A DNA stretch of 64,000 bases from an uncultured bacterium (GCA_965371515.1 CBDUYR010000002.1:50203-114202); one strand, 5' to 3'; positions 1,429 through 18,157 are shown, numbered from the stretch's first letter. Notes: generated by a model not told the origin, from the letters alone. A program made the numbers and translations.

Positions 1429-2943
1429 GGGGACCGGGAAAGCCTCGTAGAGAACAAGCGTGACCCCGGGCAGATAATATTCCGCGGAACGGTTCATACT
1501 GGTCTCGAGGTGATCGACGATATGACCCTCGGCATCGGTGTCCCACACCCTGCAGCTGACCAGCCAGACTCTCCTGCGCCCTTCTGTCAGCCGGCGGAAT
1601 TTCTCCTCGATGCCGTCACGGTCAAGATGCGCGGCATAGATCGATTTCACGGGCCGGCTTCCGCGGTAATAGTGCCGTACCGCTCTCTCCATCCCCGGGG
1701 CAAGGATTACATCGCCTGGCATGTCCGCATCCGAGATGATCTCGACTGCGCCCCTGATATCATCCCTCGAGTACCTGGGCTCGAAGTGATAATGCATCAC
1801 CGAAAAAAGCATCAGTGCGCACAGGGCCGATGTCGCCGCGACACGCGCTGTCCTGGCGCGTGGGATCCCGTGTGCGATGATCGCGATGAACAGCGGGAAA
1901 GCGCACATGAGGTACCGTACGTTGAGGACCTTTATCTTGAGGATCGCCGCTGCAGTCACGAGTCCGATCGTCGCCGACAAAACGCAGATATAGAGGGCGG
2001 CCCTGCGTTCCCTGAACAGCCTGGCCAGACCGTTTACTGCGGCCGCTCCGAACAGCAACGCCGCAAGGGCTATCTGCAGGCCGTACCTGCCGAGCAGGGA
2101 GGACACCGTTACCGATTCATGCAGTTCCCGGAGATCCGGACCGTATGAGAATCCCATGGCAAAGGCGAAAAGACCGTACGGATATGCCATCAGTTCCGAC
2201 AGGCCGGCACCCTCCATCCTGTAGACGACCGGGCGGCTCGATGCTACCACCGCCCTTATCCTCCTGAGAAAGAAGAACTCCCTGTATATCCATGGAGAGA
2301 CGATGACAAGCGTGACTAAGGCGGCGAGCGCTCCGTATCTCAGGTGGTTCCCCCTGAGCCTGCCCGTCACCACCATGTACAGGGCAAGTCCGGCGCAGAG
2401 GAAAACCGCCATGAAATGCGACAGACAGGCGAGTCCGAGGGCCAGGCCAAGCAGAAGACCGCTCCGGAACGAAGGCTTCTCGTCGAAACGGCTGAAGGCA
2501 AGCAGGGAAAGGACGACAAACATCGTGAGGAACGAGTAGAACCGCAGCTCCTGGGAATAGTAGATGTTGAAAGGGTTGACAGCCATCAGGAGGGCTCCGG
2601 CCAGGGCGGTGCTCTCATTCGACTCGCGCCTGAGCCAGAAATAGATGAGGATCACTGTCACGACCCCGGCCAAGGCTCCCGGAGCGCGCAGCCAGGCCTC
2701 CGAGGAAGATGCCAGCGCCCAGAAATGCATAGCCAGCGAATAGAGCGGCCCGTGAACGTCCCACAACAGTTTGACGCCGTAGGGGATCCCTCCTTCCGGC
2801 GACGAATAAGACCCGATCGTGAGGATCTCGTCGAGCCAGAACGACTGATGACCAAGCCGGAAAAACCTCAGCACGGCGGCCAGCACGGCGACTGCCGTCA
2901 ACACCGCAAGATTTCTGCTGTCTCCTCCTGTATTCCTCATCAT
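1414..2943 (-). CDS. GT-C superfamily glycosyltransferase (ArnT/PMT-like, GT39/GT83 family), polytopic membrane protein
   Basis: 509 aa with many TM helices. The N-terminal region (LRFFRLGHQSFWLDEILTIG... YSQELRFYSF) is typical of ArnT-like 4-amino-arabinose/mannosyl transferases. Confidence 0.7.
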   Translation of the reverse strand: MMRNTGGDSRNLAVLTAVAVLAAVLRFFRLGHQSFWLDEILTIGSYSSPEGGIPYGVKLLWDVHGPLYSLAMHFWALASSSEAWLRAPGALAGVVTVILIYFWLRRESNESTALAGALLMAVNPFNIYYSQELRFYSFLTMFVVLSLLAFSRFDEKPSFRSGLLLGLALGLACLSHFMAVFLCAGLALYMVVTGRLRGNHLRYGALAALVTLVIVSPWIYREFFFLRRIRAVVASSRPVVYRMEGAGLSELMAYPYGLFAFAMGFSYGPDLRELHESVTVSSLLGRYGLQIALAALLFGAAAVNGLARLFRERRAALYICVLSATIGLVTAAAILKIKVLNVRYLMCAFPLFIAIIAHGIPRARTARVAATSALCALMLFSVMHYHFEPRYSRDDIRGAVEIISDADMPGDVILAPGMERAVRHYYRGSRPVKSIYAAHLDRDGIEEKFRRLTEGRRRVWLVSCRVWDTDAEGHIVDHLETSMNRSAEYYLPGVTLVLYEAFPVPIDTP

Positions 2944-3012
2944 TGTCCTTATACCCCCGCAGCGCGATTTTTTCCAGTTGAAAACGAGTTTATCGAAGCC
3001 GATACTCGATCC

Positions 3013-3912
3013 ATGGCGTCAGCAGAGAAAAAAGATACGACGATCTACATCGGGCCCGCAGGCTGGTCGTACGCCGACTGGGAAGGAGTTGTCTACCCTT
3101 CAGGCACAGGGTATGACAGGCTTCTCTACATGGCACGCTACTTTAACGTAATCGAGCTCAACAGCTCATTCTACCGGATCCCCGGGGAAAAGATGGTCTC
3201 CAGCTGGCGGGACAGGCTTTCGACCGTGCCCGGGTTCAGGCTCACCATCAAGGTCAACGGTAAGTTCACGCACGAGAGGGAGTACGTACCGAGCGAGCTG
3301 AAGGCATTCACAGCCCGTTTCTCCCCGCTGCACGAGGCTGGTATCTCTGGTCCCTTTCTCCTGCAGTTCCCCTGGTCTTTCAGAAACACCCCTCGATCGA
3401 GAGAATATCTAGAGAGACTGACTCCCTTCTTCGAGGGCCGTCCGACTGCTGTCGAGTTGAGACACGGCTCCTGGGACGACCCCGAAACACTCGACCTGCT
3501 GTCGAGGTGCGGCTTCGCGTTCTGCAACATCGACCAGCCGCTGATCGGCGATTCCTTCCCGCCGTCGTCATTCGTGACCGATCATGACACGGGCTACATC
3601 CGTCTCCACGGGAGGAACAGTAAGGACTGGTTCCGCAGCGGCGCCGGCCGCGACGCGAGGTACGACTATCTCTATTCACAGGAAGAGATGGAGGAATGGT
3701 CGAAACGTGCCAGCGAGATGATGGGCAGGGTCAGTTCGCTCTTCATAATCACGAACAATCATTTCAGGGGTCAGGCGCTGGTCAACGCCCTCCAGTTGAA
3801 GTCGATGCTCGAAGGAGGCCTGATCGAGGCTCCGGCTTCGCTCATGAGAACATTCGGATCTTTGAGGGATTTCGCCGCTCCCCTTCCCGGAGATGAGGAA
3901 CTCGACTTTTAG
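3013..3912 (+). CDS. DUF72 (UPF0759/YecE-like) family protein
   Basis: Starts IYIGPAGWSYADWEGVVYP, the hallmark N-terminus of DUF72. The start was set at ATG 3013 (MASAEKK). The upstream part of the long ORF 2344..3912 overlaps the opposite-strand GT39 gene and was discarded. Confidence 0.75.
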   Translation: MASAEKKDTTIYIGPAGWSYADWEGVVYPSGTGYDRLLYMARYFNVIELNSSFYRIPGEKMVSSWRDRLSTVPGFRLTIKVNGKFTHEREYVPSELKAFTARFSPLHEAGISGPFLLQFPWSFRNTPRSREYLERLTPFFEGRPTAVELRHGSWDDPETLDLLSRCGFAFCNIDQPLIGDSFPPSSFVTDHDTGYIRLHGRNSKDWFRSGAGRDARYDYLYSQEEMEEWSKRASEMMGRVSSLFIITNNHFRGQALVNALQLKSMLEGGLIEAPASLMRTFGSLRDFAAPLPGDEELDF

Positions 3913-3917
3913 GAAAG

Positions 3918-4493
3918 CTACCTCGTCAATATGCCCAGGAGCAGAACGAGCAGAAACAGTGCGACGTAAAACAGCAGCTTCTTCGGAGATAAATGGGACC
4001 CTTCTCCACCCACCTTCAACGTCATCTTTTTCTTCTGTTTCCTGGCCCTGACAAGGGGCGTAAGGCAGAACTGGCAGAACTCGTCGTCCTTCTTCAGTGG
4101 AAAGCCGCATTTGATACAGTTCTTTTCCTCGATTTCGACGATCTCCTGTTTCTCTTCGGGGATCTCGACCTCAGGCTTCACTTCTTCGGGATTGCAATCC
4201 TCTATGAAGCCGATGCCTCCGGCCTCTTCGATCAGTTCGAGCGCACCTCGAGCCTTCGATGCGATTTTCGTCTCTACGACCTTCTTCGGCAGGTCGCGAA
4301 GCATGAACTTTATCTTGGTAACGGGCGTGCTGGTCAGTATCCCATATTTGATGGCGAATGAATCGGGAGTCTCGATCTCTCGCTTTATCCCCTCGAGGGT
4401 GACCTTGTAGATCGTTTCTTTCGGTCTGACGTCTTTCTTATCATCACCATCTTTGGGCGTGGCAGATCTGTATATGGAATCCTGTACGGACAT
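3918..4493 (-). CDS. Hypothetical tail-anchored protein with a zinc-ribbon (CxxC...CxxC) and a C-terminal TM helix
   Basis: CIKCGFPL...CQFCLTPL, followed by a lysine-rich linker and a hydrophobic C-terminus (LLFYVALFLLVLLLGIL). No recognisable family. Confidence 0.5.
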   Translation of the reverse strand: MSVQDSIYRSATPKDGDDKKDVRPKETIYKVTLEGIKREIETPDSFAIKYGILTSTPVTKIKFMLRDLPKKVVETKIASKARGALELIEEAGGIGFIEDCNPEEVKPEVEIPEEKQEIVEIEEKNCIKCGFPLKKDDEFCQFCLTPLVRARKQKKKMTLKVGGEGSHLSPKKLLFYVALFLLVLLLGILTR

Positions 4494-4563
4494 AATACTC
4501 CCTTCGGGGTTATAGAAAGCATTATCCGTGCCACAGACAGTCGATCGGTTAAGCGAATCGGCG

Positions 4564-4596
4564 GGAAAAAAAGGGGCAGGAAACTATTCCTGCCCC
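4564..4596 (-). terminator. Rho-independent terminator after the FN3 lipoprotein gene
   Basis: Minus strand reads GGGGCAGGAA-tagt-TTCCTGCCCC followed by TTTTTTT (stem at + 4573..4580 and 4589..4596, A-run at 4566..4572). Confidence 0.7.
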
Positions 4597-4619
4597 ATTG
4601 AGAATTATTATTGAAACTG

Positions 4620-5015
4620 TTATCGCGTATTGATTACCGCACACTCCTCGCCGGCCCTCCAACCCTCTATCCCGAAGGTATCGACCGCTGACACCTGGTA
4701 GCAATACTCTACGTTGCCGACGAGCTTCGTGTCTGTGTATGTCAGGTCGGTCGTCGTCCCGGCCAGTTCGACCACGTCGAACGCGGCAAAGTAGTAATAG
4801 ACCCTGAATTCCTCCAGCGTCCCCATACTCTCCGGCGGGTAGTCCCACGATATCGTAGCCTGCTCCGTCCCCGGTGTGACCGTCAGCTCGGTCGGGGTCG
4901 GCGGAGCATCCACATCGAAGGGCGCAGGTTCCGTCCCGTGGTTATTCGAGCAGGAGACGAGGGCGGCAGCCGCGACAATCGTCAATGCCATTATCATCTT
5001 CTTCAGCATCGTCAT
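4620..5015 (-). CDS. Lipoprotein with a fibronectin type III-like domain
   Basis: Signal peptide plus lipobox (LVSCS). Contains TELTVTPGTEQATISWDYP...YCYQVSAVDTFGIEG, typical of FN3. Confidence 0.55.
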   Translation of the reverse strand: MTMLKKMIMALTIVAAAALVSCSNNHGTEPAPFDVDAPPTPTELTVTPGTEQATISWDYPPESMGTLEEFRVYYYFAAFDVVELAGTTTDLTYTDTKLVGNVEYCYQVSAVDTFGIEGWRAGEECAVINTR

Positions 5016-5021
5016 CGCCTC

Positions 5022-5501
5022 CTAGAACGAGAATGTCTTCACGACCATGAAACCATCCGGCCTGATCTCCATCGAGACAGGGGGAACGCTCGCCTCGGGG
5101 CCAAGCGTGATGTCGAGAATACTCCAGACGTACATTCCAGCCAGGACACCGATCGCAATGTTACGGTACCCGTAGATATCATCCGCATCATTCCAGCTGT
5201 CCGTCATCTGCGAGTAGTACTCAACGGCGTCCCCGATGTAGGCTGCCTGCGCGTACCCCCTCTGCGCCTCCTCATACGAATCTATGTGCCGATTGTACTG
5301 CAGGGTAAACCCGCTGATCACTGCGATCGAAACGAGCGCCGTTCCCATCATCACAGCGCCCCTCGTATACCGCCCGGTCGAGAACTGCCCCCACCCCGGG
5401 AATACGACCGACTTGATCACATCTTCGTTCCTTTCGGCGGCGGCGGCCAGAGACGGCAGCAGGAGCAATGCCAGGAGCACTGTCACCGCAATCTTTCTCA
5501 T
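5022..5501 (-). CDS. Secreted/membrane hypothetical protein, DUF5683-like
   Basis: Signal peptide (MRKIAVTVLLALLLLPSLAAAA) and a PGWGQF...Y..G motif with a following TM segment, as in DUF5683. The start was moved to the internal Met at 5501. Confidence 0.45.
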   Translation of the reverse strand: MRKIAVTVLLALLLLPSLAAAAERNEDVIKSVVFPGWGQFSTGRYTRGAVMMGTALVSIAVISGFTLQYNRHIDSYEEAQRGYAQAAYIGDAVEYYSQMTDSWNDADDIYGYRNIAIGVLAGMYVWSILDITLGPEASVPPVSMEIRPDGFMVVKTFSF

Positions 5502-5617
5502 CCTGAATCCTTTCTCCAGGTCATTTCGTTTACGGCTCTTATCCGTTATGTACGAATTTCCGGCGAAAATGTTACATCGCCATACTATAACCTCTTGAGG
5601 ACTGGAACAATAGCCGA

Positions 5618-5646
5618 TTGACATGTTTCGGGAAAGCACTTAGTTT
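5618..5646 (+). promoter_or_regulatory. Putative sigma70 promoter for the ABC operon (TTGACA-N17-TAGTTT)
   Basis: Perfect -35 TTGACA at 5618..5623, a 17-nt spacer and -10 TAGTTT at 5641..5646, about 50 nt upstream of the ATG at 5697. Confidence 0.4.
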
Positions 5647-5696
5647 TATGTCTGCTGCACGCTGGCGAGCAGCCGGCTTCATCGTGGAGGACGGAT

Positions 5697-6647
5697 TTGA
5701 TCCGAATAAGGGAACTGTCAAAATATTACGGGATTACGAAGGCTGTGGATAACCTCTCCTTTACTGTCGAGAGAGGCGAAGTCCTCGGTTTTCTCGGGCC
5801 GAACGGCGCCGGCAAGACCACCACGATGAAAATACTCGCCTGCTACCTTCCCCCTTCTTCCGGTACGGCGGAGATCTTCGGATCCGACATACTGAATGAT
5901 TCGATGGCGGTAAGGAAGAGGATCGGCTACCTCCCCGAAAAGAATCCCCTCTACACCGACATGGACGTCCGCTCCTTCCTCGAGTTCGCTGCCCGCCTGA
6001 AGGGCGTGGAAAGAGAGTCGCTGAACGGTTCGGTGGGCGCAGTCATAGAGAGATGCGGGCTCGGGGAAGTGAGGCGCAGGAAGATCGGCAACCTCTCAAA
6101 GGGATTCCAGCAGAGGGTAGGAATCGCCCAGGCGATCGTGAACGATCCGGAGCTGCTGATCCTCGACGAGCCGACGATCGGCCTCGACCCGAGGCAGATA
6201 ATCGACATCAGAACGCTGATCAAGGAACTGGGCAGGGAGAGGACCGTCATACTCAGCTCACACATCCTCCCCGAGGTAAGCCAGGTCTGCGACAGGATAA
6301 TCATTATCAACAACGGACGTCTCGTGGCCGTCGATTCCCCGGACAACCTCCGCAACAGGCTCAAGAAATCCTCGATGACCAAGGTCCGCATTGCCGGATC
6401 AGCCGATCCGGCCGACACCGAACGTGTCATCCTGTCAGTCGAGGGGACGCGCATGATCCGGATCGAGGAACCGGGCGGAGACGGGTCCGCACTTATCACG
6501 GTCGAATCGTCTTCCGATTCCGATATCCGCAGCGCTCTCGCGAAAAGACTCGTCGAGGAGGATATACCCCTGCTCGAGATCTACAGCGAGGAACTCTCCC
6601 TGGAGGACATCTTCATCAGGCTCGTTACCGAGGAGGGCAACGCATGA
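5697..6647 (+). CDS. ABC transporter ATP-binding protein (GldA-like)
   Basis: Walker A GPNGAGKTT, ABC signature LSKGFQQRV, Walker B LLILDEPT. First gene of the four-gene GldA/GldF/GldG/DUF4340-type cassette. Confidence 0.9.
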   Translation: MIRIRELSKYYGITKAVDNLSFTVERGEVLGFLGPNGAGKTTTMKILACYLPPSSGTAEIFGSDILNDSMAVRKRIGYLPEKNPLYTDMDVRSFLEFAARLKGVERESLNGSVGAVIERCGLGEVRRRKIGNLSKGFQQRVGIAQAIVNDPELLILDEPTIGLDPRQIIDIRTLIKELGRERTVILSSHILPEVSQVCDRIIIINNGRLVAVDSPDNLRNRLKKSSMTKVRIAGSADPADTERVILSVEGTRMIRIEEPGGDGSALITVESSSDSDIRSALAKRLVEEDIPLLEIYSEELSLEDIFIRLVTEEGNA

Positions 6648-7414
6648 GCATAACCTCCGCGATATACGGCAGGGAACTGAGATACTTTTTCCAGTCGGTG
6701 ACAGCGTATGTGGTCATCTTTATGTTTCTGGTAGTGTCAGGCGGATTCTTCTACTTCATCTTCCGTGCCTACAACCTGATGTCCCTGCAGTCGTTGCAGA
6801 GCGCATTCGCGCCGGGGGGCCTGAACCTCATCGACGGAGTGATGCGGCCGCTGCTCGGCAACATCAGCATCATGATCCTGCTCTTCCTGCCCCTTCTCAC
6901 GATGAGACTGATGGCCGAGGAAAAGAAGCAGGGAACCTTCGAACTCCTCTCCACATACCCCGTCTCCGACATAGCCATCGTATCGGGCAAGTTTCTCGCG
7001 GCGCTGACTGTATACGCGATAATGCTCGGCTGCACTCTGCTGTATCCAGGGATGCTCTTCTTATACGCCGAACCGGAGATCGTACCCATCGTCACGGGAT
7101 ACCTCGGTCTTCTGCTCATGGGCACCGCTTTCATCGCAATCGGTACATTTTTTTCTTCACTTACCTCCAACCAGATCATCGCCGGCGTAGCCACCTTCAG
7201 CACTTTCCTCTTCTTTCTCCTGATCGGCTGGGGCGTCCCGTTTGTCGGACCGAAGTTCGCGGAGGTTCTCGCGCAGGTATCTATCCTCTATCATTTCGAA
7301 TCTTTCTCAAAGGGAGTGATCGAGACGAGCGACGTGACATACTATATCTTCCTCGCTGCCTTTTTCCTGTTTCTGACGGTGAGGTCTCTCGAATCAACCA
7401 GGTGGAAAAGCTGA
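6644..7414 (+). CDS. ABC-2 family permease (GldF-like)
   Basis: 256-aa polytopic protein. Its start overlaps the preceding stop (ATGA at 6644..6647). The N-terminal part of the annotated ORF 6053..7414 is a shadow inside the ATPase gene. Confidence 0.8.
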   Translation: MSITSAIYGRELRYFFQSVTAYVVIFMFLVVSGGFFYFIFRAYNLMSLQSLQSAFAPGGLNLIDGVMRPLLGNISIMILLFLPLLTMRLMAEEKKQGTFELLSTYPVSDIAIVSGKFLAALTVYAIMLGCTLLYPGMLFLYAEPEIVPIVTGYLGLLLMGTAFIAIGTFFSSLTSNQIIAGVATFSTFLFFLLIGWGVPFVGPKFAEVLAQVSILYHFESFSKGVIETSDVTYYIFLAAFFLFLTVRSLESTRWKS

Positions 7415-8964
7415 TGGGCAGCGTAATTTATAAAGTGCTCGGCGCTGCCGGTCTCGTCCTGATCGTCATCGGGGGAATAGTCTACGGGATCTTCTACACG
7501 AGCGGGTGGCCCGCCGTACTCCCCCTCGCCCTCGGCATTGTGCTGACCATAGGGGCTTTCGCCGGTGGATACCGTTCCGAAAGATCGGAAGGATCGAGAC
7601 GAACCGCCCGATACGGAATAAGCGCTGGCCTTTCCGCCATAACGGTGGCTGCTATCCTGATCTTCCTCCAGACACTGTCTTTCAGGCATACTTCTACGAT
7701 CGATCTTACGAGCAACCGGCGTTTTTCCCTCTCATCCCAGACAGAAAAGGTCCTCGGCGCACTTGAAACACCCGTGCACCTCACTGGATTCTACAAGGAG
7801 ACGAGCCAGGACAGGGTCGTGCTGCAGGACCTGCTCGAGAGTTATTCGGCGCGCAAACCGGCCGTGACATTTATCTTCATCGATCCCGACAAGTATCCAA
7901 CTAAAGCACGAGAGTATGGAGTCACAAAACCAGGCATACTATTCGTAGAAACCGGCGAGGCGCGTGAAGAACTCGAGAATCCTGACGAGCAGCGTTTGAC
8001 AAACGCAATCGCCAGGGTGACTTCCGGCAGTGTGAAGACGGTCTGCTTCCTCACCGGCCATGGGGAAAAGTCGGTTTTCGAGACGGGGCCCCACGGTATC
8101 AGCGGTCTGATGGAGGCGCTCCATATGGAAAATTTCGAGGTCCGTGACATCCTCGCTCTCAGCGCCGAGAAGATTCCGGAGGAGTGTGACATCCTCATCG
8201 CCGCCGGTCCTGAGAAGGACATAGTCAAGCATGAGCAGAATGTGATCCTCGACTACCTGGTCGGCGGCGGACGTGCCCTCTTCCTCGTCGATCCGATGAC
8301 CGAGATCACAAACATCGAGGGGATACTGGCAGCCTACGGAATAATTCTCGGCGACGACGTTATCGTAGACATGCAGGGAAAACTACTTGCGGGCAACTTT
8401 CTCACTCCTGTTGTGAACAGTTACGGCAAGCATCCGATAACCGACGGATTCCGGCATTTCACATTCTTCCCTCAGGCACGGTCTGTCATCGCGCTGGCGG
8501 ATACACCTCCATCTCTGGTGGTTACGGCCCTTTGCCGGACAAATGAAGGTACCTATTCCGAGACCGATATGTCGACCCTGCTCGAGGGCCAGACGCAGTA
8601 CGATCCCTCGGAGGACACCAAGGGGCCGATCGACATCGCCGTGGCCTCGGCCATGGGATTCAGCCCTGATTCCATGTCCACGGTCATTGAATCCCGCGTG
8701 GTCGTTTTCGGCGACAGCGATTTCGCCGGGAACTCCAACCTTCGTCTTTCGGGAAACAGGGATCTTCTACTCAATACGATCCTCTGGCTCGCCGAGGCGG
8801 AAGACATGATCTCGATCAGGCCGACCGACAACCTGCAGCAGCCCGTCCTGCTGACAGCTGCCCAGGGACGTTTCGTCTTCTGGATCCCGGTCGTTGCCCT
8901 TCCTGCACTGGTACTGCTCACCGGAGCGGCGATCCTCACGTGGAGAAAGAAAACCGTCCGGTAG
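7402..8964 (+). CDS. GldG-like ABC-type auxiliary component (ABC_transp_aux family)
   Basis: 520 aa, with TM helices at the N and C termini and a large extracytoplasmic domain. This is the typical third gene of the GldAFG cassette. Confidence 0.7.
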   Translation: MEKLMGSVIYKVLGAAGLVLIVIGGIVYGIFYTSGWPAVLPLALGIVLTIGAFAGGYRSERSEGSRRTARYGISAGLSAITVAAILIFLQTLSFRHTSTIDLTSNRRFSLSSQTEKVLGALETPVHLTGFYKETSQDRVVLQDLLESYSARKPAVTFIFIDPDKYPTKAREYGVTKPGILFVETGEAREELENPDEQRLTNAIARVTSGSVKTVCFLTGHGEKSVFETGPHGISGLMEALHMENFEVRDILALSAEKIPEECDILIAAGPEKDIVKHEQNVILDYLVGGGRALFLVDPMTEITNIEGILAAYGIILGDDVIVDMQGKLLAGNFLTPVVNSYGKHPITDGFRHFTFFPQARSVIALADTPPSLVVTALCRTNEGTYSETDMSTLLEGQTQYDPSEDTKGPIDIAVASAMGFSPDSMSTVIESRVVVFGDSDFAGNSNLRLSGNRDLLLNTILWLAEAEDMISIRPTDNLQQPVLLTAAQGRFVFWIPVVALPALVLLTGAAILTWRKKTVR

Positions 8965-8977
8965 TGGAGGTCCCGAT

Positions 8978-10300
8978 ATGAAGGGGCGCAGCCTCATCAT
9001 CCTGATCGCCGTTCTCGTCATTGTGGCCGGGTATTTCTTCCTCGTCGAGGAGAAGCAGCACCGGGACACTGCAGATGCGAAGAGGACCTCTCGAATGCTC
9101 CTGCCGTACGGCCCTCTCGACATCGATGCCGTCTCCTTTATCAATCCATACGGCGAGACGATAATGTGGGAAAGGGACGGCGAGGGATGGATGATAACAT
9201 TTCCCGTTACCGATATCGGCGAGAAGAGTACTATCGACATGTTCCTCGGCCAGATCGCTCCCGGGCGGAAGCTCGAGGAGTTTGCCGACGTGACCGACCT
9301 CTCCTCTTACGGGCTCGCTCCGCCTTACGCCACCGTCATCATCGAGAGCGAAAAGTACGGAAGGACCGATACCGTTCATGTTGGCGGGAAGACTCCCACA
9401 AGCTTCAGGTCATACGTGACTCTCGGATCGTCAGGGAATGTAGTGGTGACCCGCGAGCTCGCCCGCAACGTGATGCAGAAGAAGCTGTTTCACCTGAGGG
9501 ACAAGAACTTCATCGCCCCGGCCGACAGGAACATCACATCGTTTTCAATCGTCTCGGGCGGAAACCTTCTCGCCTTTCAGCGGTCGGGAAACTCCTGGAA
9601 GGTAGCCGGCTCGACGCTGACAGTCGACCGCAACGTCCTTGAACCCTGGGTTACCGGGCTGGCCTCCGCCCTTGTATACGAATTCGCCTCCGAGAACCTG
9701 GCCGACACCCTTCTGTTCGGGATAGGCGATCCTCACAGGTCAACCGTCCTCAATACCGCAAGCGGTGAATCGATCAGGATATCGTTCGGCAGGCGCAGGG
9801 ATTCCCTTGTTCCGGTCGTCAGGTCGGGGCGCAAAAATGTGATGATGATAAAGGCCGGATTCCTGGACGCGTTCCACTGGACGGACGACCGCCTCATCGT
9901 CATGAACCTCTCCCTCGTAAAACCGGGAGAGGTCGGCGCCCTCCAGTGGGAGACCCCCGATACCATCGCCTCGTGGAGTATGGAGGACGGCGTATGGATG
10001 ACGCGTGGGGACGACCCCACCCCCGTCGACCAGGAAGCCTTGAAGTATCTGCTGATGTATCTTCGATCGGCGACCTTCGAAAGTCTCGTGACAGACCGAG
10101 AACTCGTATCCGCGGCGAAACCGGACATCATGATCACCCTTGGAGACAGGTCAGGCGAGGTGTTCGACATCATATCGCTATACCGTTTCGAGGACGGGAC
10201 TGCCGGGGGCATTTCGCTTTCTGGCGGAAACGCCGGCCATATCAGCGAGGGAACGCTTGCGGAGATCCACCGGGCATATTCGGCGATTATCATCCGTTAG
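8978..10300 (+). CDS. DUF4340 domain protein (usual partner of GldG-like proteins)
   Basis: 441 aa from ATG 8978, with an N-terminal TM anchor (LIILIAVLVIVAGYFF). Gene order matches the conserved GldG-DUF4340 pairing. Confidence 0.6.
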   Translation: MKGRSLIILIAVLVIVAGYFFLVEEKQHRDTADAKRTSRMLLPYGPLDIDAVSFINPYGETIMWERDGEGWMITFPVTDIGEKSTIDMFLGQIAPGRKLEEFADVTDLSSYGLAPPYATVIIESEKYGRTDTVHVGGKTPTSFRSYVTLGSSGNVVVTRELARNVMQKKLFHLRDKNFIAPADRNITSFSIVSGGNLLAFQRSGNSWKVAGSTLTVDRNVLEPWVTGLASALVYEFASENLADTLLFGIGDPHRSTVLNTASGESIRISFGRRRDSLVPVVRSGRKNVMMIKAGFLDAFHWTDDRLIVMNLSLVKPGEVGALQWETPDTIASWSMEDGVWMTRGDDPTPVDQEALKYLLMYLRSATFESLVTDRELVSAAKPDIMITLGDRSGEVFDIISLYRFEDGTAGGISLSGGNAGHISEGTLAEIHRAYSAIIIR

Positions 10301-10351
10301 ACCGGGACAACTGCAGTATCACCTTTTGAGATATTCTGCTATATTTAATGC

Positions 10352-11482
10352 GTGATGAACGATTCTCAGGCAACGATATCGAGAAGGGATTTTCTTTCCT
10401 GCACGGCGGGAATGATAGCGGCTGGCGCCGCTCTTGGAGGTGCGGCATTCGCCGATGACGGCGGGCCGCATCCGGCTCGGTACTGGGAAAAGCTCGAGGA
10501 CGGCCGCGTCCGCTGCACTCTCTGCCCCCATCGATGTACGATCTCCGACGGCAGGCGGGGCGCATGTAGAGTCAGAGAGAATCGCGGCGGGGTCCTCTAT
10601 TCCCTCTCGTGGGGAAGGCCGTGCGCCCTTCACATCGATCCGATCGAGAAGAAGCCGTTCTACCATTTCCTGCCCGGCTCCATCTCCCTCTCGATGTCGA
10701 CGGTGGGATGCAACATGACATGCCGTTTCTGCCAGAACTGGCAGATCTCGCAATCATCTCCCGAGGACATCGATACCGAGAGTGTGAGTCCGGGATTCTT
10801 CGCGAAAAAAGCCACAAAATCGGGCGCTTCTTCCATAGCATTCACCTACGGGGAGCCGGTCGTCTTCATCGAGTACGCGATGGATATTGCGGCGGCCGCC
10901 AGGGAATCAGGCGTAAAGAGCGTGGTCGTCACCAACGGATATATCGAGCAGGAGCCACTAGCCGATCTCTGTTCATCGGTCGACGCGATCAAGGTCGATC
11001 TCAAGGCCTTCGAGGACGGATACTACAGGAAGATATGCGGTGCCGGGCTCGACCCCGTTCTGCGCTCCCTCGTGGAGATCAGATCCCGTGGCGTATGGCT
11101 CGAGATCGTCTACCTTATGATTCCGACGCTCAACGACAACGCGGAGACGATCGGCAGGATGGCCGCCTGGATAGAGGCCGAACTCGGGCCTGACGTTCCG
11201 GTCCATTTCTCGAGGTTCCATCCCGCCTACCGCCTTCCGGACCTCCCTCCGACACCCGTCTCTTCGCTCGACGCGGCAAGGGCAAGATGTCTCGACGCCG
11301 GATTGAACTACGTCTATATCGGCAACGTAGCCGGTCACGAGGGCGGCTCGACATTCTGCCGTTCATGCTCGAATAAGATTATTGACAGGTCCGGGTACAC
11401 AATACTTTCCATCGAGATGGACGGAGACAAATGCCGGTTCTGCGGGACCGCCCAGCCCGGAGTGTGGAGGAAAGATTCATGA
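10352..11482 (+). CDS. AmmeMemoRadiSam system radical SAM enzyme (PFL-AE-like) with an N-terminal twin-arginine (Tat) signal peptide
   Basis: Radical SAM CX3CX2C motif CNMTCRFCQNW. Overall similarity to the PFL-activase-like AmmeMemoSam radical SAM family. N-terminus SRRDFLSCTAGMIAAGAALGGAAFA-DD is a canonical Tat signal with an AxA cleavage site. Confidence 0.8.
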   Translation: MMNDSQATISRRDFLSCTAGMIAAGAALGGAAFADDGGPHPARYWEKLEDGRVRCTLCPHRCTISDGRRGACRVRENRGGVLYSLSWGRPCALHIDPIEKKPFYHFLPGSISLSMSTVGCNMTCRFCQNWQISQSSPEDIDTESVSPGFFAKKATKSGASSIAFTYGEPVVFIEYAMDIAAAARESGVKSVVVTNGYIEQEPLADLCSSVDAIKVDLKAFEDGYYRKICGAGLDPVLRSLVEIRSRGVWLEIVYLMIPTLNDNAETIGRMAAWIEAELGPDVPVHFSRFHPAYRLPDLPPTPVSSLDAARARCLDAGLNYVYIGNVAGHEGGSTFCRSCSNKIIDRSGYTILSIEMDGDKCRFCGTAQPGVWRKDS

Positions 11483-12990
11483 GGATACGCGTGGCTACCG
11501 GAGGGCTGATATTTATACTGATCCTTGCTGCGGCCGGTACTGATATTGCCGGCCTGAAAGGAAGCGATATGGTTAAATCGATCAGAAAACCGGCCGTTGC
11601 CGGACAGTTCTATTCTTCAGAACCGGAAGCGCTCCGCAGGGAGATAGAGAAATACATCGGCGAGGCCGATCCACCGGCCCTGGAGGACGACATATTCGCC
11701 CTCATATCTCCTCACGCCGGATACGTGTATTCGGGGCATGTAGCTGCATGGGGCTATTCGCTCCTCGATGAGGGGAGTTTCGAGACCGTCGTAATCATCT
11801 CTCCCTGCCATGTCGATTACTTCCGTTTCGCCTCGATCTACGACGGCGACGCCTACGAGACTCCGCTCGGCCTTGTGGAGATCGATAAAGAGCTCTCTGA
11901 GGAGATCGCTTCGCGCAGCGACCTCGTGAGGATCGGCCCGGACGGACATGGTACGGGGTCCCGCGGAAGGGGCGAGCACTCGCTCGAGGTGCAGATCCCC
12001 TTCCTGCAGGTCGCCCTGGGGGATTTCAGGATCGTGCCGATAGTGATGGGTGACCAGTCCGCCGATGTAGTGCAAGGCCTGGGAGAAGCGCTCTCAGGGG
12101 CACTCGAGGGCCGCAACGTACTGATCGTCGCCAGTACCGATCTATCCCATTTCCATGACGACGCCTCGGCAAGGAAGCTCGACGGCGAGTTCATAGAGAA
12201 ACTCGAGGCTTTCGACGCCGGAGGCCTCATGCACTCGATCGATGCGGGAAAGACCGAGGCGTGCGGCGGCGGACCATCGGCGGCGGCGATGATAGCCTCT
12301 GCCAGTCTCGGCGGCAGAGACTGCAAGGTACTGCAATACGCCAATTCCGGTGACGTCTCTGGTGACAGGGGAAGTGTCGTCGGTTACGTCTCCGCCGTCA
12401 TCACGGGAATCCGCGGTAAAAGCGACGGTGACGACGTCGACAGGGAGACGAGGATATTCCTCCTGCGTTACGCCAGGTCGGTCATCCGCAAGAATCTCGG
12501 CATGGAGACAGAGGAGATCGAGAGACCTGACTCGCCCCTCCTCATGGAGAAGCGCGGAGGATTCGTCACTCTCAAGAAGAACGGCAGGCTCAGGGGCTGC
12601 ATCGGATATATCGAGGCTGTCAAACCTCTTCTCGATACGGTCGGCGAGATGGCTTACTCGGCGGCATTCAGCGACCACAGGTTCGACCAGGTCAGGAAGG
12701 AAGAGGTCGACGACCTGGCGATCGAGATATCGGTACTCAGCCCGGTGCGCGAGACAACGGACCCTTCGGAAATCGAAGTCGGGAGGCATGGGATCATAAT
12801 ATCGGCAGGAGGGCGGCGGGGGCTCCTCCTTCCCCAGGTGGCGGTCGAATACGGCTGGGACAGGGACACGTTTCTCGACCAGACGTGCGTCAAGGCCGGT
12901 CTCTCTCCCGGCGCCTGGAAGGATGCCGGTACCACTATAGAGATTTTCAGCGCCGAGATATTCTCCGAAAAGGAGATGGGATTACGTTGA
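11479..12990 (+). CDS. Fused AmmeMemoRadiSam system protein B (Memo-like) and protein A (AMMECR1 domain), with an N-terminal signal peptide or anchor
   Basis: The start ATG at 11479 overlaps the radical SAM stop (ATGA). N-terminal hydrophobic segment MRIRVATGGLIFILILAAAG. Then the Memo N-terminus (IRKPAVAGQFYSSEPEAL ... ISPHAGYVYSG). The C-terminal ~190 aa carry the AMMECR1 motif (GGFVTLKKNGRLRGCIGYIE). Confidence 0.8.
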   Translation: MRIRVATGGLIFILILAAAGTDIAGLKGSDMVKSIRKPAVAGQFYSSEPEALRREIEKYIGEADPPALEDDIFALISPHAGYVYSGHVAAWGYSLLDEGSFETVVIISPCHVDYFRFASIYDGDAYETPLGLVEIDKELSEEIASRSDLVRIGPDGHGTGSRGRGEHSLEVQIPFLQVALGDFRIVPIVMGDQSADVVQGLGEALSGALEGRNVLIVASTDLSHFHDDASARKLDGEFIEKLEAFDAGGLMHSIDAGKTEACGGGPSAAAMIASASLGGRDCKVLQYANSGDVSGDRGSVVGYVSAVITGIRGKSDGDDVDRETRIFLLRYARSVIRKNLGMETEEIERPDSPLLMEKRGGFVTLKKNGRLRGCIGYIEAVKPLLDTVGEMAYSAAFSDHRFDQVRKEEVDDLAIEISVLSPVRETTDPSEIEVGRHGIIISAGGRRGLLLPQVAVEYGWDRDTFLDQTCVKAGLSPGAWKDAGTTIEIFSAEIFSEKEMGLR

Positions 12991-12999
12991 GGTTGACGG

Positions 13000-15198
13000 T
13001 CAGGCGCGGCCCGTAGCGATCTTTCGTGTAAGTATCAGGGCCGCCGCGCAGTGTATCGAAGCGGCCGTCGCGGCCGTCCACGCAAGCCCAGAAAGAGGCA
13101 GCAGCAGGGTTCCGGCAATCAGCCCTCCGGCGCACGCACCGAACATGTCCCACGAATAGAACAGTGCGGGAGGCGCGGCCGCTTCCGCTGGCCATGCCGT
13201 CTCGACGACTGTCCTGTAATAGAATCCCGTCAGCAGTCCGCCCGCTGTCGACAGGGCCGTGAATCCTGCAGTCCCCATCAGATGCCCGCTCCCCGCACCG
13301 GCCTGAAGCCGGAGCCAGACAGGGACAAGGAGTGCCGTCACTGCCATCAGGATATGGCAGACAGCCAGCCTGGAAACTCCCTTCCCCTTCCGTCGTCCGC
13401 CGGCATATGCCCCGAGAGCGGCTCCCGCCATGAACAGGGAGGTCAGCAGCACGAGCGTGTGGTAGAGTATCCCCGAGAACGACTGGTAGGCAAGCATCAC
13501 TGACAGCTGAACCGTCATGCTGCACAGCCCCGTCAGGAACACCGCTGTTTTAGCCGCGGCACCACCCCTCACCAGTATCCCTGTAAGTATGGCGGCGGCA
13601 AGGATCACCGACGGCAGCACCCAGGATGGAAGATCCAGAATGGTTTCGAGAAACCTCACTGTCGCCGTTCCCGACTTCCAGCCGCGCAGTACCAGTTCAA
13701 AAGGCACCAGGACAGGATGTATGTCTGTGTTCAACCGTCGCGGCGCATCGGCCAGCGCGGAAGAGAGGTACTCTCTTCTCTCCTCCGAGATCCTGTAGGG
13801 CAGTTCGTCGAGTGCGAGAAGGCGCCCTCCGAGACCTCTCTCCACGAGTCTTCCCGGGATATCTCCCGAGTCGACCGGGCTGTCTGACGCGATGAAGAAA
13901 ACAGTCCCGCCCGGCACAATGTCGACATATTCGAATGCCGAACTGAGAGTCTCCTCGATTATTTTCAGCACAGCGGCATTCCTGGCGGAGAGGAAGTTCT
14001 CGGAGGATCCGTGCCGCACTGTCAGGATCCCCCCGGCAGAGAGGCTGTTCCGCGCAGACTCGAAGAATTCCGCGGTGAAATATCTGTTCCACCTGAGATT
14101 GATGGGCTCGGGGACGTTGACAATGATTACATCGTACGGTCCCGAGCCGCGGATCAGGAAACGGCCGTCACCCTTCAGGCCCCTTGCGCCAGGTGGTTTT
14201 CTCTCATCTCCGACAGCCCTGCCTACAGCCCCGGACAGCTGCCCGTCGAGTTCGACCCAGTCGACCCTCTCGATGCCGGGATGGCTCAGCGCCTCTTTTA
14301 GCCCTCTCCCCGGCCCTCCGCCGATCATCAGGATATCAACAGGCGCGTCATGAGCCAGCAGCGGTATATGGACCCCTTCACCAGCTCTCTCCATATCCGG
14401 ATAACTGAGAAGCCTCGCTCCTCCGGAGAAGACCGATACGGTCTCCCTGTCCCTCGTCACGCACAGCTCCGCATACCTCGATGGAACGACCTCGACTACC
14501 TCGTACCCCTTGAAAACGATCGACAGACTCGCACTGTCGAGATAAGGCGCCGCCAGGATCCCCGCCACCGCAAACGAGAGTGCTATCGCCCATACCGCGC
14601 GCCTTCCCTTCATGGAAGTAGAGAGGAAGACAGCCGTCACCAGCGCCGACACGCAGAACGACGCCTCGAGCTGTGTGAGAAATGCGAAGAAGAGGATGGA
14701 GAGGAGTACACCACCTACGATCGAGCCGGCCGCTTCCATTATGTAGGCCGAAGAGATACCGGCGGAGATCCCCTCTCGGGGATCCTTCATCACCGCGCTC
14801 GCGGAGTTGTAGACCGCGCCGTACAGAAGCCCGAAAGGAGCGGTAGCAACGAGGATGAATCCCGCGGCGGGGAGGATATCGGGAATGGAACCCGGCGGAT
14901 CGACGAGCACGCTCCTGCCCAGCCGTATCATCAGAACGATGAGGGGAACGGAAAAAGCGAGTGAGAGCGAGAGTCCGCCGAACGCTTTTTCGATGCTCGC
15001 GGAACCTGGCCGTAGGATCCGTCCACCGAGAAGGCCGCCGGCCCCGATCCAGAAGAGCCACGAGGAAAGCGCCAGTCCCAGTACCAGCTCAGTGCCCGTC
15101 ACGACCCCGAGCAGCTCTCTTATAAAAAGTGTCTGCGCGCAGACGGCGCATGCCCCTAGTACAATGACTCTTGCTCGTCTGTGATTCCTGTCTCTCAT
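13000..15198 (-). CDS. Polytopic membrane protein with a central spermidine synthase-like (PABS/aminopropyltransferase) domain flanked by two related TM blocks
   Basis: 732 aa. The central domain has MIGGGPGRGLKE ... VIIVNVPEP, a PABS-type SAM-dependent fold. The N-terminal and C-terminal TM regions resemble each other (LGACAVCAQTLF...GAGGLLGGR versus LTGLCSMTVQLS...GAALGAYAGGR). Confidence 0.65.
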   Translation of the reverse strand: MRDRNHRRARVIVLGACAVCAQTLFIRELLGVVTGTELVLGLALSSWLFWIGAGGLLGGRILRPGSASIEKAFGGLSLSLAFSVPLIVLMIRLGRSVLVDPPGSIPDILPAAGFILVATAPFGLLYGAVYNSASAVMKDPREGISAGISSAYIMEAAGSIVGGVLLSILFFAFLTQLEASFCVSALVTAVFLSTSMKGRRAVWAIALSFAVAGILAAPYLDSASLSIVFKGYEVVEVVPSRYAELCVTRDRETVSVFSGGARLLSYPDMERAGEGVHIPLLAHDAPVDILMIGGGPGRGLKEALSHPGIERVDWVELDGQLSGAVGRAVGDERKPPGARGLKGDGRFLIRGSGPYDVIIVNVPEPINLRWNRYFTAEFFESARNSLSAGGILTVRHGSSENFLSARNAAVLKIIEETLSSAFEYVDIVPGGTVFFIASDSPVDSGDIPGRLVERGLGGRLLALDELPYRISEERREYLSSALADAPRRLNTDIHPVLVPFELVLRGWKSGTATVRFLETILDLPSWVLPSVILAAAILTGILVRGGAAAKTAVFLTGLCSMTVQLSVMLAYQSFSGILYHTLVLLTSLFMAGAALGAYAGGRRKGKGVSRLAVCHILMAVTALLVPVWLRLQAGAGSGHLMGTAGFTALSTAGGLLTGFYYRTVVETAWPAEAAAPPALFYSWDMFGACAGGLIAGTLLLPLSGLAWTAATAASIHCAAALILTRKIATGRA

Positions 15199-15662
15199 GT
15201 CAGGGAGCGCTGATCGTCGAAATAATCTTCCTCGAACACCTTCTTGAAATCGAAGACATCGTCAAATTCCTCTATTGAATCCTCTTCGCTGCTTTCCAGC
15301 AGATTTGCGGCTATCAGGCCAAAGACGATGTTTCCTATGTCCCTCGTCGTATAGATTCCCCAGTGGTTGAGCACTTCTTTCGCCATCGGTCCGAACTGCC
15401 TCGAGGAGATCACCGTCAGCCCCTCGAGCAGCTCCTCGCCGGAAATATGCCTGTCGACGTGAAGCATCTTTATCGTGGCTTCGACTCCGGACAGCACAAA
15501 GCGCCAGGCGTACTTTTCGTATCTGCCGTCGGCGCTCGCAGCATCATCGACCTCCCGCCACCTGTCGGAATCGTGTCTCAATCCCCCGCCCCTTCCCTGT
15601 GCCCGTATGTAGTTGCCGGCCCCCTGCCGGACCCCCTTCTCAGTATCGTCCCGTGTTCCCAT
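15195..15662 (-). CDS. Small acidic hypothetical protein; the true start is probably internal
   Basis: The ORF overlaps the nadB 3' end by 85 nt, so a later start (e.g. Met at ~15464) is more likely. The acidic C-terminus EEDSIEEFDDVFDFKKVFEEDYFDD stands out. Its stop overlaps the start of the downstream membrane gene (ATGA-type coupling). Confidence 0.35.
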   Translation of the reverse strand: MGTRDDTEKGVRQGAGNYIRAQGRGGGLRHDSDRWREVDDAASADGRYEKYAWRFVLSGVEATIKMLHVDRHISGEELLEGLTVISSRQFGPMAKEVLNHWGIYTTRDIGNIVFGLIAANLLESSEEDSIEEFDDVFDFKKVFEEDYFDDQRSLT

Positions 15663-17200
15663 GAAGGATCCCTGTCGGGCCAGTCCATATTGTAATGCAG
15701 GCCGCGCGATTCCTTTCTCCTGGAGGCCGATTCGACTACGAGCGAACTGACCAGCGCGATATTCCGCAACTCTACCATGTCGCTCGAGATGCCATACTCA
15801 TCGAAGAGCATCCTGACGGTCTGGCTGATCTGGCCTATCCTCTGCCTGGCGATGTGGAGGCGTTCGTCCGACCTGACGATGCCGACGTAATCCCACATTA
15901 CCCTTCTGGCCAGGTCCCAGTCATGATCGAGTATCACGGTCTCCAGCACTTTCGGATCGGCAGCGACAGGAACATCCTCTCCGGAGAGTTCATATCGGTC
16001 TTTCTCCATCTCCCCGGCCAGTTTTGCAGCACAGCGCGCGGCGCTCACGAGCGACTCGAGCAGCGAATTGCTCGCGAGCCTGTTGGCTCCGTGGCAGCCT
16101 GAACAGGCGACCTCACCTATGGCATAGAGCCCTTCGAGTGCAGTCGTCCCGTCGATGCGGGCCTTCACCCCTCCAACCATGTAATGCGCGGCCGGGACGA
16201 CCGGGATAGGCTCGGCGCCTATATCTATGCCAAATTCAAGGCATGTCTCGCAGACGAACGGAAAGCGCTGCCTGAGCCAGTCACCCGGTCTGTGAGAGAT
16301 GTCCAGCAGGACGTACTTATCTCCGCTGCGTTTCATCTCGCTGTCGATAGCCCTGGCTACGATATCACGCGGGGCAAGCTCAGCGCGCTGATCGTAGTCT
16401 TTCATGAACTCCCTGCCGTCGAGGCTCCGCAGCACTGCTCCTTCTCCCCTCAATGCCTCGGAGATCAGCCGGGACTTGGCGTCGGGGTGATAGAGACAGG
16501 TGGGATGGAACTGCACGAACTCGAGGTTTTCGATCTCCGCACCTGCGGCGTAGGCCATCGCTATGCCGTCGCCCGTGGCGACGTCGGGATTCGAGGTGTA
16601 GAGGTATATCTTTCCCGCTCCGCCTGTAGCAAGAACGGTGTTCGACGCAAGATATGTACGGATCTCCCCGTCGCCCGGTATCGCGTGACATCCGCGCACC
16701 CTGCCGCCCCTGTCTACGACGAGGTCGACGGCAAGCCTGTTCTCTTCGAGCTCTATCCGGGGATTCGACGCGCAGGCTTCAAGCAATGTATCCTCAAGTT
16801 CCCTGCCGATCAGATCGCTGAAGTGTACTATCCGCGGCCTCGTGTGGCCGCCTTCCCGTCCGAGCTGGAGGTCTCCGCTGCTGTCGTCTCTCGAGAACCT
16901 CACTCCGAGATCGATCAGCTCCTCGATCCTGTCCGGCCCCTCGCGGACCATCATCTCGACAGCTTCACTGTCGCAGAGACCGCCGCCGGCCTCGATCGTG
17001 TCCTTTATGTGCAGCTCGAACGAATCCCTGACCCTGTCCATGACCGAAGCTATCCCGCCCTGTGCATACTTCGTATTGGACTGATCCGCCCCCTTCTTCG
17101 TCAGCACCCTCACGTCCGCGTAAGCGGAGGCCTTCAGGGCGAAGAACAGCCCCGCGGCGCCGCTTCCGATCACCAGTATGTCGCTTCTCACAGGTTCCAA
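15578..17200 (-). CDS. nadB: L-aspartate oxidase
   Basis: FAD-binding N-terminus DILVIGSGAAGL, with succinate dehydrogenase/fumarate reductase flavoprotein-like motifs throughout. 540 aa. Confidence 0.9.
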   Translation of the reverse strand: MEPVRSDILVIGSGAAGLFFALKASAYADVRVLTKKGADQSNTKYAQGGIASVMDRVRDSFELHIKDTIEAGGGLCDSEAVEMMVREGPDRIEELIDLGVRFSRDDSSGDLQLGREGGHTRPRIVHFSDLIGRELEDTLLEACASNPRIELEENRLAVDLVVDRGGRVRGCHAIPGDGEIRTYLASNTVLATGGAGKIYLYTSNPDVATGDGIAMAYAAGAEIENLEFVQFHPTCLYHPDAKSRLISEALRGEGAVLRSLDGREFMKDYDQRAELAPRDIVARAIDSEMKRSGDKYVLLDISHRPGDWLRQRFPFVCETCLEFGIDIGAEPIPVVPAAHYMVGGVKARIDGTTALEGLYAIGEVACSGCHGANRLASNSLLESLVSAARCAAKLAGEMEKDRYELSGEDVPVAADPKVLETVILDHDWDLARRVMWDYVGIVRSDERLHIARQRIGQISQTVRMLFDEYGISSDMVELRNIALVSSLVVESASRRKESRGLHYNMDWPDRDPSWEHGTILRRGSGRGPATTYGHREGAGD

Positions 17201-17435
17201 GGCTTCCCGCTTTCCTGATACTCGATAATAGAGAATAGGTGTTTCTCACCGCAACGTAAAGAAGTGCATTATGCATTTATACGGTCACCGCCCATGTACC
17301 AGCCCACCACCTGTGCTATAACACAATGATAATCCTGCACATACATATACGTATGGCCGCAGGAATCTGGCACAAACATTGCGTAGTGAGCGTTGAAACA
17401 CCATGTAATCAGTTAACACATCAGGAGGTTACCCG

Positions 17436-18059: not shown

Positions 18060-18099
18060 GCCGCTCGACTAACAGGGTAACCGGTGTTTTATAGAGAGG

Positions 18100-18131: not shown

Positions 18132-18157
18132 CCATATCCTGCGGAGTACTCTTTGAA

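Follow-up and report, generated by a model that had tools for sequence, protein, structure and literature searches.

The six-gene block

A stretch of DNA of 64,000 nucleotides (nt) from an uncultured bacterium (GCA_965371515.1, CBDUYR010000002.1:50203-114202), in the following called the window, carries six co-directional plus-strand genes between positions 5697 and 12990. A cassette for an ATP-binding cassette (ABC) transporter resembling GldA, GldF and GldG, which includes a DUF4340 protein, is followed by the genes of an AmmeMemoRadiSam system, namely a radical S-adenosylmethionine (SAM) enzyme (rSAM) and a Memo-AMMECR1 fusion protein. The source genome is a metagenome-assembled genome (MAG) of the Krumholzibacteriota, and about 170 related loci, numbered with the prefix L, were compared overall. 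In an original prediction the whole block was taken as one functional module. Our comparison argues for two separable units which are neighbours through lineage-specific collinearity, and not for one dedicated module; we regard this reading as likely. The block consists of the following genes and putative signals (aa, amino acids; TM, transmembrane segments).

5618..5646, plus strand: sigma70-like promoter element TTGACA-N17-TAGTTT, read from the sequence and conserved in 7 relatives
5697..6647, plus strand: GldA-like ABC transporter ATP-binding subunit, 316 aa (PF00005, 108.5 bits; TIGR03522)
6644..7414, plus strand: GldF-like ABC-2 permease, 256 aa, about 6 TM by hydropathy (PF12698, PF12679; TIGR03518)
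7414 (or 7402)..8964, plus strand: GldG-like auxiliary protein, 516-520 aa (PF09822, 108 bits; PF23357, DUF7088; TIGR03521)
8978..10300, plus strand: DUF4340 protein, 440 aa (PF14238, 69.2 bits against a gathering score of 25)
10337..10345, plus strand: extended -10-like element TGCTATATT in the 51-nt spacer between the DUF4340 and rSAM genes, 6-9 nt before the rSAM start
10352/10355..11482, plus strand: AmmeMemoRadiSam radical SAM enzyme, 375-376 aa (TIGR04337, 407.4 bits against a cutoff of 220)
11479..12990, plus strand: Memo-AMMECR1 fusion protein, 503 aa (PF01875, 213 bits; PF01871, 190 bits)

All six gene assignments are backed by Pfam and NCBIfam profile matches. In a public contig of the same sequence (L167, offset 2977) independent gene calls match the coordinates of five of the six genes, and the list of open reading frames (ORFs), the public calls and the profiles agree with the gene identities given in the original prediction. 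Its description of the layout was accurate as well. The ABC and AmmeMemoRadiSam genes lie head-to-tail on one strand, minus-strand genes border both sides, and no gap exceeds 51 nt. Apart from the 51-nt spacer between the DUF4340 and rSAM genes, neighbours within the block either overlap (by 1-4 nt) or are separated by 13 nt. The start of the permease gene overlaps the stop of the ATPase gene by 4 nt, and the start of the Memo-AMMECR1 gene overlaps the stop of the rSAM gene (ATGA). A consensus promoter/terminator scan found no plus-strand terminator-like site within the block, and an Rfam search of positions 4800-15800 gave no match. One strand, short gaps and no terminator are what is expected of an operon.

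The same features speak for one operon and one module, as does the membrane or periplasmic location predicted for all six products. In such a module the exported rSAM and Memo-AMMECR1 proteins would act in the synthesis or modification of an envelope component, and the transporter would carry this component, or else a precursor or cofactor, across the inner membrane. We consider this arrangement unlikely, as the distribution of the gene order, the junction between the two gene groups and the neighbourhood of distant cassettes speak against it.

Conservation of the gene order

Relatives were collected in two scans. From a scan of GTDB species genomes for the rSAM the best 80 of at least 579 relatives were inspected, and from a scan of metagenomes with a GldG alignment the best 80 of 183, for which 79 loci were returned. 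The window proteins were compared with all loci by tblastn; most of the contigs are fragments of MAGs or metagenomes.

The nearest rSAM loci belong to MAGs of Candidatus Krumholzibacteriota (L001 with 80%, L002 with 79%, L003 and L004 with 56-57% identity), and the order ABC ATPase, permease, GldG, DUF4340, rSAM, Memo/AMMECR1 is kept in all four. All eight metagenome loci with a GldG identity of at least 45% and enough downstream sequence have the rSAM gene downstream. The same gene order is found in two loci that were reached via homologues of the DUF4340 protein (L164 and L165, 46-51% identity). Altogether the order is kept in the clade loci L001-L004, L081, L083, L084, L086, L090, L093-L095, L164 and L165.

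Outside this clade the picture is different. Among the 80 rSAM-seeded loci the cassette is adjacent only in L001-L004 and in none of the 76 others, which come from many phyla. Seen from the side of the transporter, rSAM, Memo or AMMECR1 genes were found in none of the 42 GldG-seeded loci of less than 45% identity that reach at least 1.7 kb downstream, nor in any of the 22 that reach at least 5 kb. The only other GldG match in the rSAM-seeded loci is in L005, where a GldG-like gene lies 6.7 kb from a lone rSAM gene on the opposite strand; this proximity was judged to be due to chance. In L018, another MAG of the Krumholzibacteriia, the AmmeMemoRadiSam genes lie between CHAT-TPR, DUF362 and PD40 genes and the cassette is not present. 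The original prediction had named the synteny in related genomes as a check. The adjacency is reproducible in all assessable members of the clade, and it is absent outside the clade in both directions.

Within the clade the adjacency is embedded in a much longer conserved region. Over about 18-20 kb (window positions of about 2344-22032) the members of the clade share the gene order of the window, namely DUF72, two small ORFs (with fn3 named between DUF72 and DUF5683), DUF5683, the six genes, a SpeE-like gene, a Minf_1886-family ORF, nadB, an ORF, lpxK, DUF374, lpxB and GFO/IDH/MocA. This collinearity persists at about 35-60% protein identity (L004, L090, L164, L165). As the stretch includes the unrelated genes nadB, lpxK, lpxB and DUF72, the adjacency of cassette and rSAM gene is no better conserved than that of unrelated neighbours, which again argues against one module. 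A linkage of the block that crosses lineages, exceeds the background collinearity and is free of an internal promoter was not found.

The ABC transporter cassette

The original prediction placed a good sigma70-like promoter just upstream of the block. The -10 hexamer TAGTTT shares just 3 of its 6 positions with TATAAT, and positions 5618-5646 were not recognised as a promoter in the consensus scan. The string ATTGACA...TTAGTTT is kept in L001, L002, L083, L086, L085, L003 and L004, down to about 63-65% ATPase identity. Because of this conservation we accept the promoter although the scan missed it; the element would be more than a chance match and the call is credible, if weak in its -10 part. 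The ATPase gene has a TTG start with a GGAGG Shine-Dalgarno sequence before it, both of which are likewise conserved in the relatives, and the public gene call is identical.

All three transporter proteins exceed the gathering scores of the families that define the architecture, PF00005, PF12698 (43 bits) and PF09822. They resemble GldA, GldF and GldG of Flavobacterium johnsoniae in combining an ABC ATPase and an ABC-2 permease with a large PF09822 auxiliary protein that has terminal TM anchors, and the Gld models are the best NCBIfam match for each of them. However, the scores stay below the equivalog cutoffs (318.4 vs 402.6, 138 vs 288.5 and 81.2 vs 389.85); the proteins are therefore GldAFG-like and not orthologues of GldAFG. 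The window cassette differs further in its fourth gene, which encodes the DUF4340 protein, and in its host, a Krumholzibacteriota MAG in which no gliding genes are evident nearby (a genome-wide search for gld, spr or type IX secretion system genes was not made).

According to hydropathy the GldG-like protein has TM anchors at the N- and C-terminus, and a large domain (about 385 aa) that is periplasmic; no relative in the PDB was found for it by sequence. The DUF4340 protein, to which P0052 is 100% identical over 440 aa, has a single N-terminal TM anchor, and the remainder is predicted to be periplasmic and beta-rich.

The original prediction had called the cassette a widespread exporter of unknown substrate, and the substrate of the GldAFG transporter of F. 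johnsoniae is likewise unknown. Widespread it is. The order ATPase, permease, GldG was also seen in about 79 metagenome loci, and a DUF4340-like ORF lies within 150 nt after the GldG-like gene in 20 of 23 distant cassettes. Beyond DUF4340 the neighbours of the distant cassettes differ and comprise Peptidase_S13, BatA/BatD/VWA/TPR genes and NusA. The conservation of DUF4340 together with the variation of the later neighbours indicates that the four-gene cassette is self-contained, and the changing company is a further point against one module with the AmmeMemoRadiSam genes.

In other phyla a Peptidase_S13 D-Ala-D-Ala carboxypeptidase follows the GldAFG-like/DUF4340 cassette in six loci and BatD/BatA-VWA/TPR genes do so in four; examples of these downstream contexts are L136 (7000-8499), L143 (12955-14511) and L110 (11443-15307). 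The differing envelope-related contexts of the distant cassettes might give a hint at the role of the cassette.

The junction between DUF4340 and rSAM

In most relatives the gap between the DUF4340 and rSAM genes is the largest one on the same strand, and the genes inside each unit overlap or have very short gaps. It measures 38-51 nt in the window, L001, L002, L083 and L086 and about 59-120 nt in most of the deeper relatives (L084, L004, L093, L095, L164-L166). In L003 it has grown to 3,455 nt and holds three antisense genes (6601-9643, minus strand), two for GDSL/SGNH-type hydrolases and a 140-aa ORF for which no Pfam match was found. In that genome the two units must, due to the three antisense genes, be transcribed separately, and the detached rSAM gene has its own TTGAAA-N15-TATATC upstream. 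The division in L003 speaks against one module.

The junction itself contains a conserved promoter-like element. Twelve nucleotides, TTCTGCTATATT, are identical in the window and in L001, L002, L083 and L086, in contrast to the variable intergenic bases around them. The more distantly related L084, L164 and L165 have TGGTATATT or TGATATATT in this junction. The pattern TGnTATATT at the junction is thus conserved in eight loci. In the window TGNTATAWT has four matches where 0.95 are expected, and the junction match is the only intergenic one. Since the other three lie within ORFs the count alone is not taken as evidence; it is the conservation across the loci that counts. No Shine-Dalgarno sequence was found before the rSAM start, in contrast to the start of the ATPase gene. 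The element is, judging from its sequence and position, probably an internal promoter for a leaderless or near-leaderless rSAM/Memo-AMMECR1 transcript.

An independent promoter and terminator between the DUF4340 and rSAM genes were stated in the original prediction to speak against its own proposal. A candidate for the promoter is there in the form of the conserved junction element, a terminator is not. Around the junction (10285-10365) no stable hairpin was found and the fold is no better than that of shuffled sequence (z = -0.39); the same comparison with shuffled sequence gave no better RNA fold at the convergent gene ends. As no terminator follows the DUF4340 gene, read-through from the ABC cassette into the rSAM gene and co-transcription are possible.

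Co-transcription by read-through could exist without any common substrate. The six genes would then be an operon of convenience of co-regulated envelope genes, comparable to nadB and the SpeE-like gene downstream of the block. The short spacer without terminator or stable hairpin fits to this explanation, and so does the way this genome is packed: the nadB gene, the Minf_1886-family ORF and the SpeE-like gene have 4-nt overlaps each, from which it follows that tight packing of unrelated genes is normal here. The conserved TGnTATATT on the other hand suggests that transcription of the rSAM gene is at least partly autonomous, and we regard the operon of convenience as quite improbable.

With an adjacency that is restricted to a single clade and lies within a collinear background, that was seen in neither set of loci outside this clade, that is split in L003 and that has a promoter-like element at its junction, the proposal of one functional module was not supported.

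AmmeMemoRadiSam enzymes and their predicted export

The TIGR04337 match of the rSAM protein starts at residue 42. The protein has the CxxxCxxC motif in the form CNMTCRFC, and its nearest solved relative is PflA. The N-terminus reads as a twin-arginine translocation (Tat)-type signal, ISRRDFLSCTAGMIAAGAALGGAAFA/DD. What is known of Tat substrates, the motif S/T-R-R-x-F-L, a moderately hydrophobic h-region, an AxA cleavage site and a cofactor-binding protein, is found in the window rSAM, and ISRRDFL, the Gly/Ala-rich h-region and the AxA site are conserved in-frame in close and distant relatives. Of the 80 rSAM homologues 62 combine an RR motif with a hydrophobic stretch and a start codon close by; in another 11 a hydrophobic anchor is present but RR is missing.

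The fusion protein scores 279.5 with TIGR04336 (protein B, cutoff 26) and 185.5 with TIGR04335 (protein A, cutoff 99) and has an N-terminal hydrophobic signal or anchor. In all 55 loci with both domains a single frame free of stop codons runs through Memo and AMMECR1, and most of the N-termini are signal or lipobox-like. The AmmeMemoRadiSam proteins look exported, judged by the Tat motif of the rSAM and the signal or anchor of the fusion, and the apparently exported radical SAM system of the original prediction agrees with these sequence features.

As in the AmmeMemoRadiSam system defined by TIGR04335, TIGR04336 and TIGR04337, the window genes are adjacent, all models score above their cutoffs and the rSAM is PflA-like. 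In contrast to that system, Memo and AMMECR1 are fused, the rSAM has a Tat signal, the fusion has a signal or anchor, and a SpeE-like protein is a recurrent extra partner. The rSAM also resembles Tat-exported iron-sulphur (Fe-S) redox proteins as a cofactor protein with an SRRxFL signal, but the exported protein would here be a radical SAM enzyme. Homologues of Memo and AMMECR1 with an unclear biochemical function exist in humans. In the covered literature, which did not extend to Burroughs et al. 2019 (JBC 294:10211, cited in PMC7159879), reportedly dealing with Memo-AMMECR1-radical SAM contexts, no description of a linkage between ABC and AmmeMemoRadiSam genes, of an exported radical SAM enzyme or of a SpeE-like partner was found.

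The public call for the rSAM gene starts at ATG 10412 (L167 7435). It yields a protein of 356 aa, the RR motif is lost and the spacer would be 111 nt. We rejected this start, which drops the conserved ISRRDFL and uses a Met for which L001 and L086 have Leu or Phe. A database look-up of the protein with the GTG start gave no match because the public call uses the downstream ATG. Automated annotation may in this way systematically hide the exported nature of the AmmeMemoRadiSam rSAM family.

A CxxCH motif, the consensus for haem c attachment, lies between signal and catalytic core in 34 of the 80 rSAM homologues (for example L007, L008, L010-L012, L016 and L021, and 27 more of L001-L080); the window protein does not have it. 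Small ORFs of 49-82 aa are found beside the rSAM gene in L160 (11832-12080), L161 (11137-11319) and L163 (12009-12158), and no counterpart was seen in the window. They could encode peptide substrates or accessory proteins.

The start at 10412, without RR motif, would fit to a system that is not exported at all. The AmmeMemoRadiSam proteins would then be cytoplasmic or located at the inner face of the membrane, and the enzyme pair would merely lie beside a transporter. Radical SAM chemistry moreover needs SAM and a low-potential reductant, and to our knowledge neither is known in the periplasm. Against a cytoplasmic system stand the in-frame conservation of ISRRDFL together with the Leu or Phe in place of the Met at 10412, the signal architecture shared by the 62 homologues across many phyla and the hydrophobic anchor of the 11 others, the signal or lipobox-like N-termini of nearly all Memo-AMMECR1 fusions, the position of CxxCH after the signal, and partner proteins with FMN_bind domains, as they are typically found in extracytoplasmic redox systems (PMC8238504). 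We hold such a lack of export to be very improbable.

The SpeE-like membrane partner

The minus-strand gene which converges with the Memo-AMMECR1 gene at a distance of 9 nt encodes a protein related to spermidine synthases.

13000..15198, minus strand: SpeE-like polytopic membrane protein, 732 aa (PF01564, 44.2 bits, above its cutoff)

Its architecture consists of 7 TM, a domain with the spermidine-synthase fold (about aa 230-485) and 6-7 further TM, in total 13-14 TM. An AlphaFold2 model has a predicted local distance difference test (pLDDT) of 88.4 and a predicted template modelling score (pTM) of 0.91. The top Foldseek matches of the model are SpeE structures (1uir and 3anx, E about 1e-11), and for the TM bundles Foldseek gave nothing informative. 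The SpeE-like domain is predicted to be in the periplasm, with the N-terminus inside according to the positive-inside rule.

A SpeE-like homologue adjoins 36 of the 55 loci with rSAM, Memo and AMMECR1, and 27 of 34 where at least 3 kb of both flanks are available. In 24 cases it is on the same strand as the system, sometimes 5-50 nt past Memo-AMMECR1. Only one of 25 loci with a lone rSAM gene has such a homologue. Reverse look-ups returned homologues of 25-30% identity that adjoin rSAM and Memo-AMMECR1 (L160, L163) and, in L161, a homologue beside rSAM and a polyprenyl synthase. The SpeE-like protein is a conserved cross-phylum partner of the AmmeMemoRadiSam genes.

With SpeE it shares the spermidine-synthase fold, the glycine-rich loop and the acidic residues for binding of the ribose and adenine of the adenosyl cofactor, which are kept as E316, D318 and D344. 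Its score is nevertheless below every equivalog cutoff, the best being PRK03612 (the membrane-anchored type) with 91.1 vs 472. In the HMMER alignment to 1uir the window protein has GGGPG and IVNVPEP, compared with GGGEG and IIDLTDP of the Thermus enzyme. Neither an equivalog score, nor the Asp of D-x-x-D-P, nor the acidic residue of GGG(D/E)G was found in the window protein. Its Asn stands at the first Asp of IIDLTDP, and the first Asp of the Thermus DLTDP motif is what we take to be the catalytic Asp. If so, the SpeE-like protein is probably not a canonical aminopropyltransferase. It differs from SpeE also in the placing of its domain, which has a TM bundle on either side and is predicted to be periplasmic, and in a genomic tie to AmmeMemoRadiSam genes instead of polyamine genes. 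The homologue P0029 is named 'fused MFS/spermidine synthase' by NCBI.

Fusions to FMN_bind (PF04205) and Fer4_5 (PF12801) occur in several of the SpeE-like homologues, namely P0041, P0043 and P0044; P0045 and L160 (8001-11750) also belong to this FMN_bind/Fer4_5 group, and an FMN_bind gene is present in the L163 cluster (13197-13754). These links suggest that the exported radical SAM enzyme receives its electrons across the membrane. Unlike in the other phyla, no FMN_bind or Fer4_5 gene lies beside the genes of the window. FMN_bind/ApbE-flavinylated and NapH-NosR-type modules are described to act in extracytoplasmic electron transfer (PMC8238504); Memo, AMMECR1 and spermidine synthase go unmentioned in that paper on flavinylation (PMC8238504).

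Two units and their possible functions

We infer that the two units lack functional coupling. The first (5697-10300) would be a self-contained, translationally coupled four-gene ABC-2 exporter with its own sigma70-like promoter. In it the GldA-like ATPase would power the GldF-like permease, and the GldG-like and DUF4340 proteins would act at the periplasmic face. By analogy with other ABC-2 exporters an envelope compound of the lipid or glycan type is its probable substrate. The second unit (10352-12990) would be an extracytoplasmic version of AmmeMemoRadiSam. Its rSAM, a multi-cluster Fe-S protein, is presumably folded and loaded with the clusters in the cytoplasm and then exported via Tat, the Memo-AMMECR1 fusion would carry a Sec-type signal or anchor, and the convergent 13-14-TM protein, with its SpeE-like adenosyl-binding domain facing the periplasm, would be their partner. 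This unit could be transcribed alone as a leaderless-type mRNA from the extended -10-like element, and probably by read-through from the first unit, too. The juxtaposition of both units probably arose once in the Krumholzibacteriota lineage and has persisted within the long collinear region.

Several points weigh against this separation. The envelope location of all products would agree with cooperation, and the adjacency is kept in every assessable clade member, even at DUF4340 identities as low as 33-37%. The rSAM homology of L090 and L094 starts about 3 nt past the DUF4340 stop, a tight junction that would also be expected of one module. No terminator separates the units, the junction promoter is suggested by a sequence motif, and the topology of the SpeE-like protein was derived from a predicted model by means of the positive-inside rule. 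Rarer co-occurrences of cassette and AmmeMemoRadiSam beyond the inspected loci could have been missed. Finally the ABC transporter may have been recruited functionally in this lineage, for which we see a low probability.

The coupling of ABC and AmmeMemoRadiSam genes is hence best read as a lineage-specific gene order, and no function of the GldAFG/DUF4340 exporters or of AmmeMemoRadiSam should be deduced from it. The main lead, and a more interesting one than the ABC linkage, is the widespread predicted extracytoplasmic variant of AmmeMemoRadiSam, which occurs in many phyla and sometimes together with FMN_bind/Fer4_5. A complete system could be imagined in which the rSAM is exported by Tat, Memo-AMMECR1 is anchored at the outer face, the SpeE-like protein delivers or holds the adenosyl cofactor, FMN_bind/Fer4_5 proteins provide the reductant in other phyla, and the ABC cassette has perhaps been recruited in the clade described here. 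We put this forward tentatively, as a possibility that is still rather doubtful as a whole. If the export is real, it becomes a testable question how SAM and a low-potential electron reach the outside of the cytoplasm.

Neighbouring genes in the collinear stretch

Three further genes of the collinear stretch lie close to the block.

5022..5501, minus strand: DUF5683 membrane protein, PF18935, public call of 159 aa; divergent left flank
15195-15581, minus strand: Minf_1886-family ORF, 128 aa (TIGR04138, 117.7 bits)
15578-17200, minus strand: nadB, assigned by its equivalog score

The DUF5683 gene is separated from the ABC ATPase gene by a divergent intergenic region of 195 nt. It is collinear across the clade and belongs to neither unit. 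With 633 bits against a cutoff of 629 nadB is a true L-aspartate oxidase equivalog, and together with the Minf_1886-family ORF and the SpeE-like gene it forms an apparent operon of unrelated functions which is conserved across the clade. The lpx genes of the stretch point to a diderm envelope containing lipopolysaccharide. At the left end of the collinear stretch (2344-3912, plus strand) an ORF of 522 aa has its DUF72 domain at residues 251-488; the public calls give 299 aa, and the long N-terminal extension is probably untranslated.

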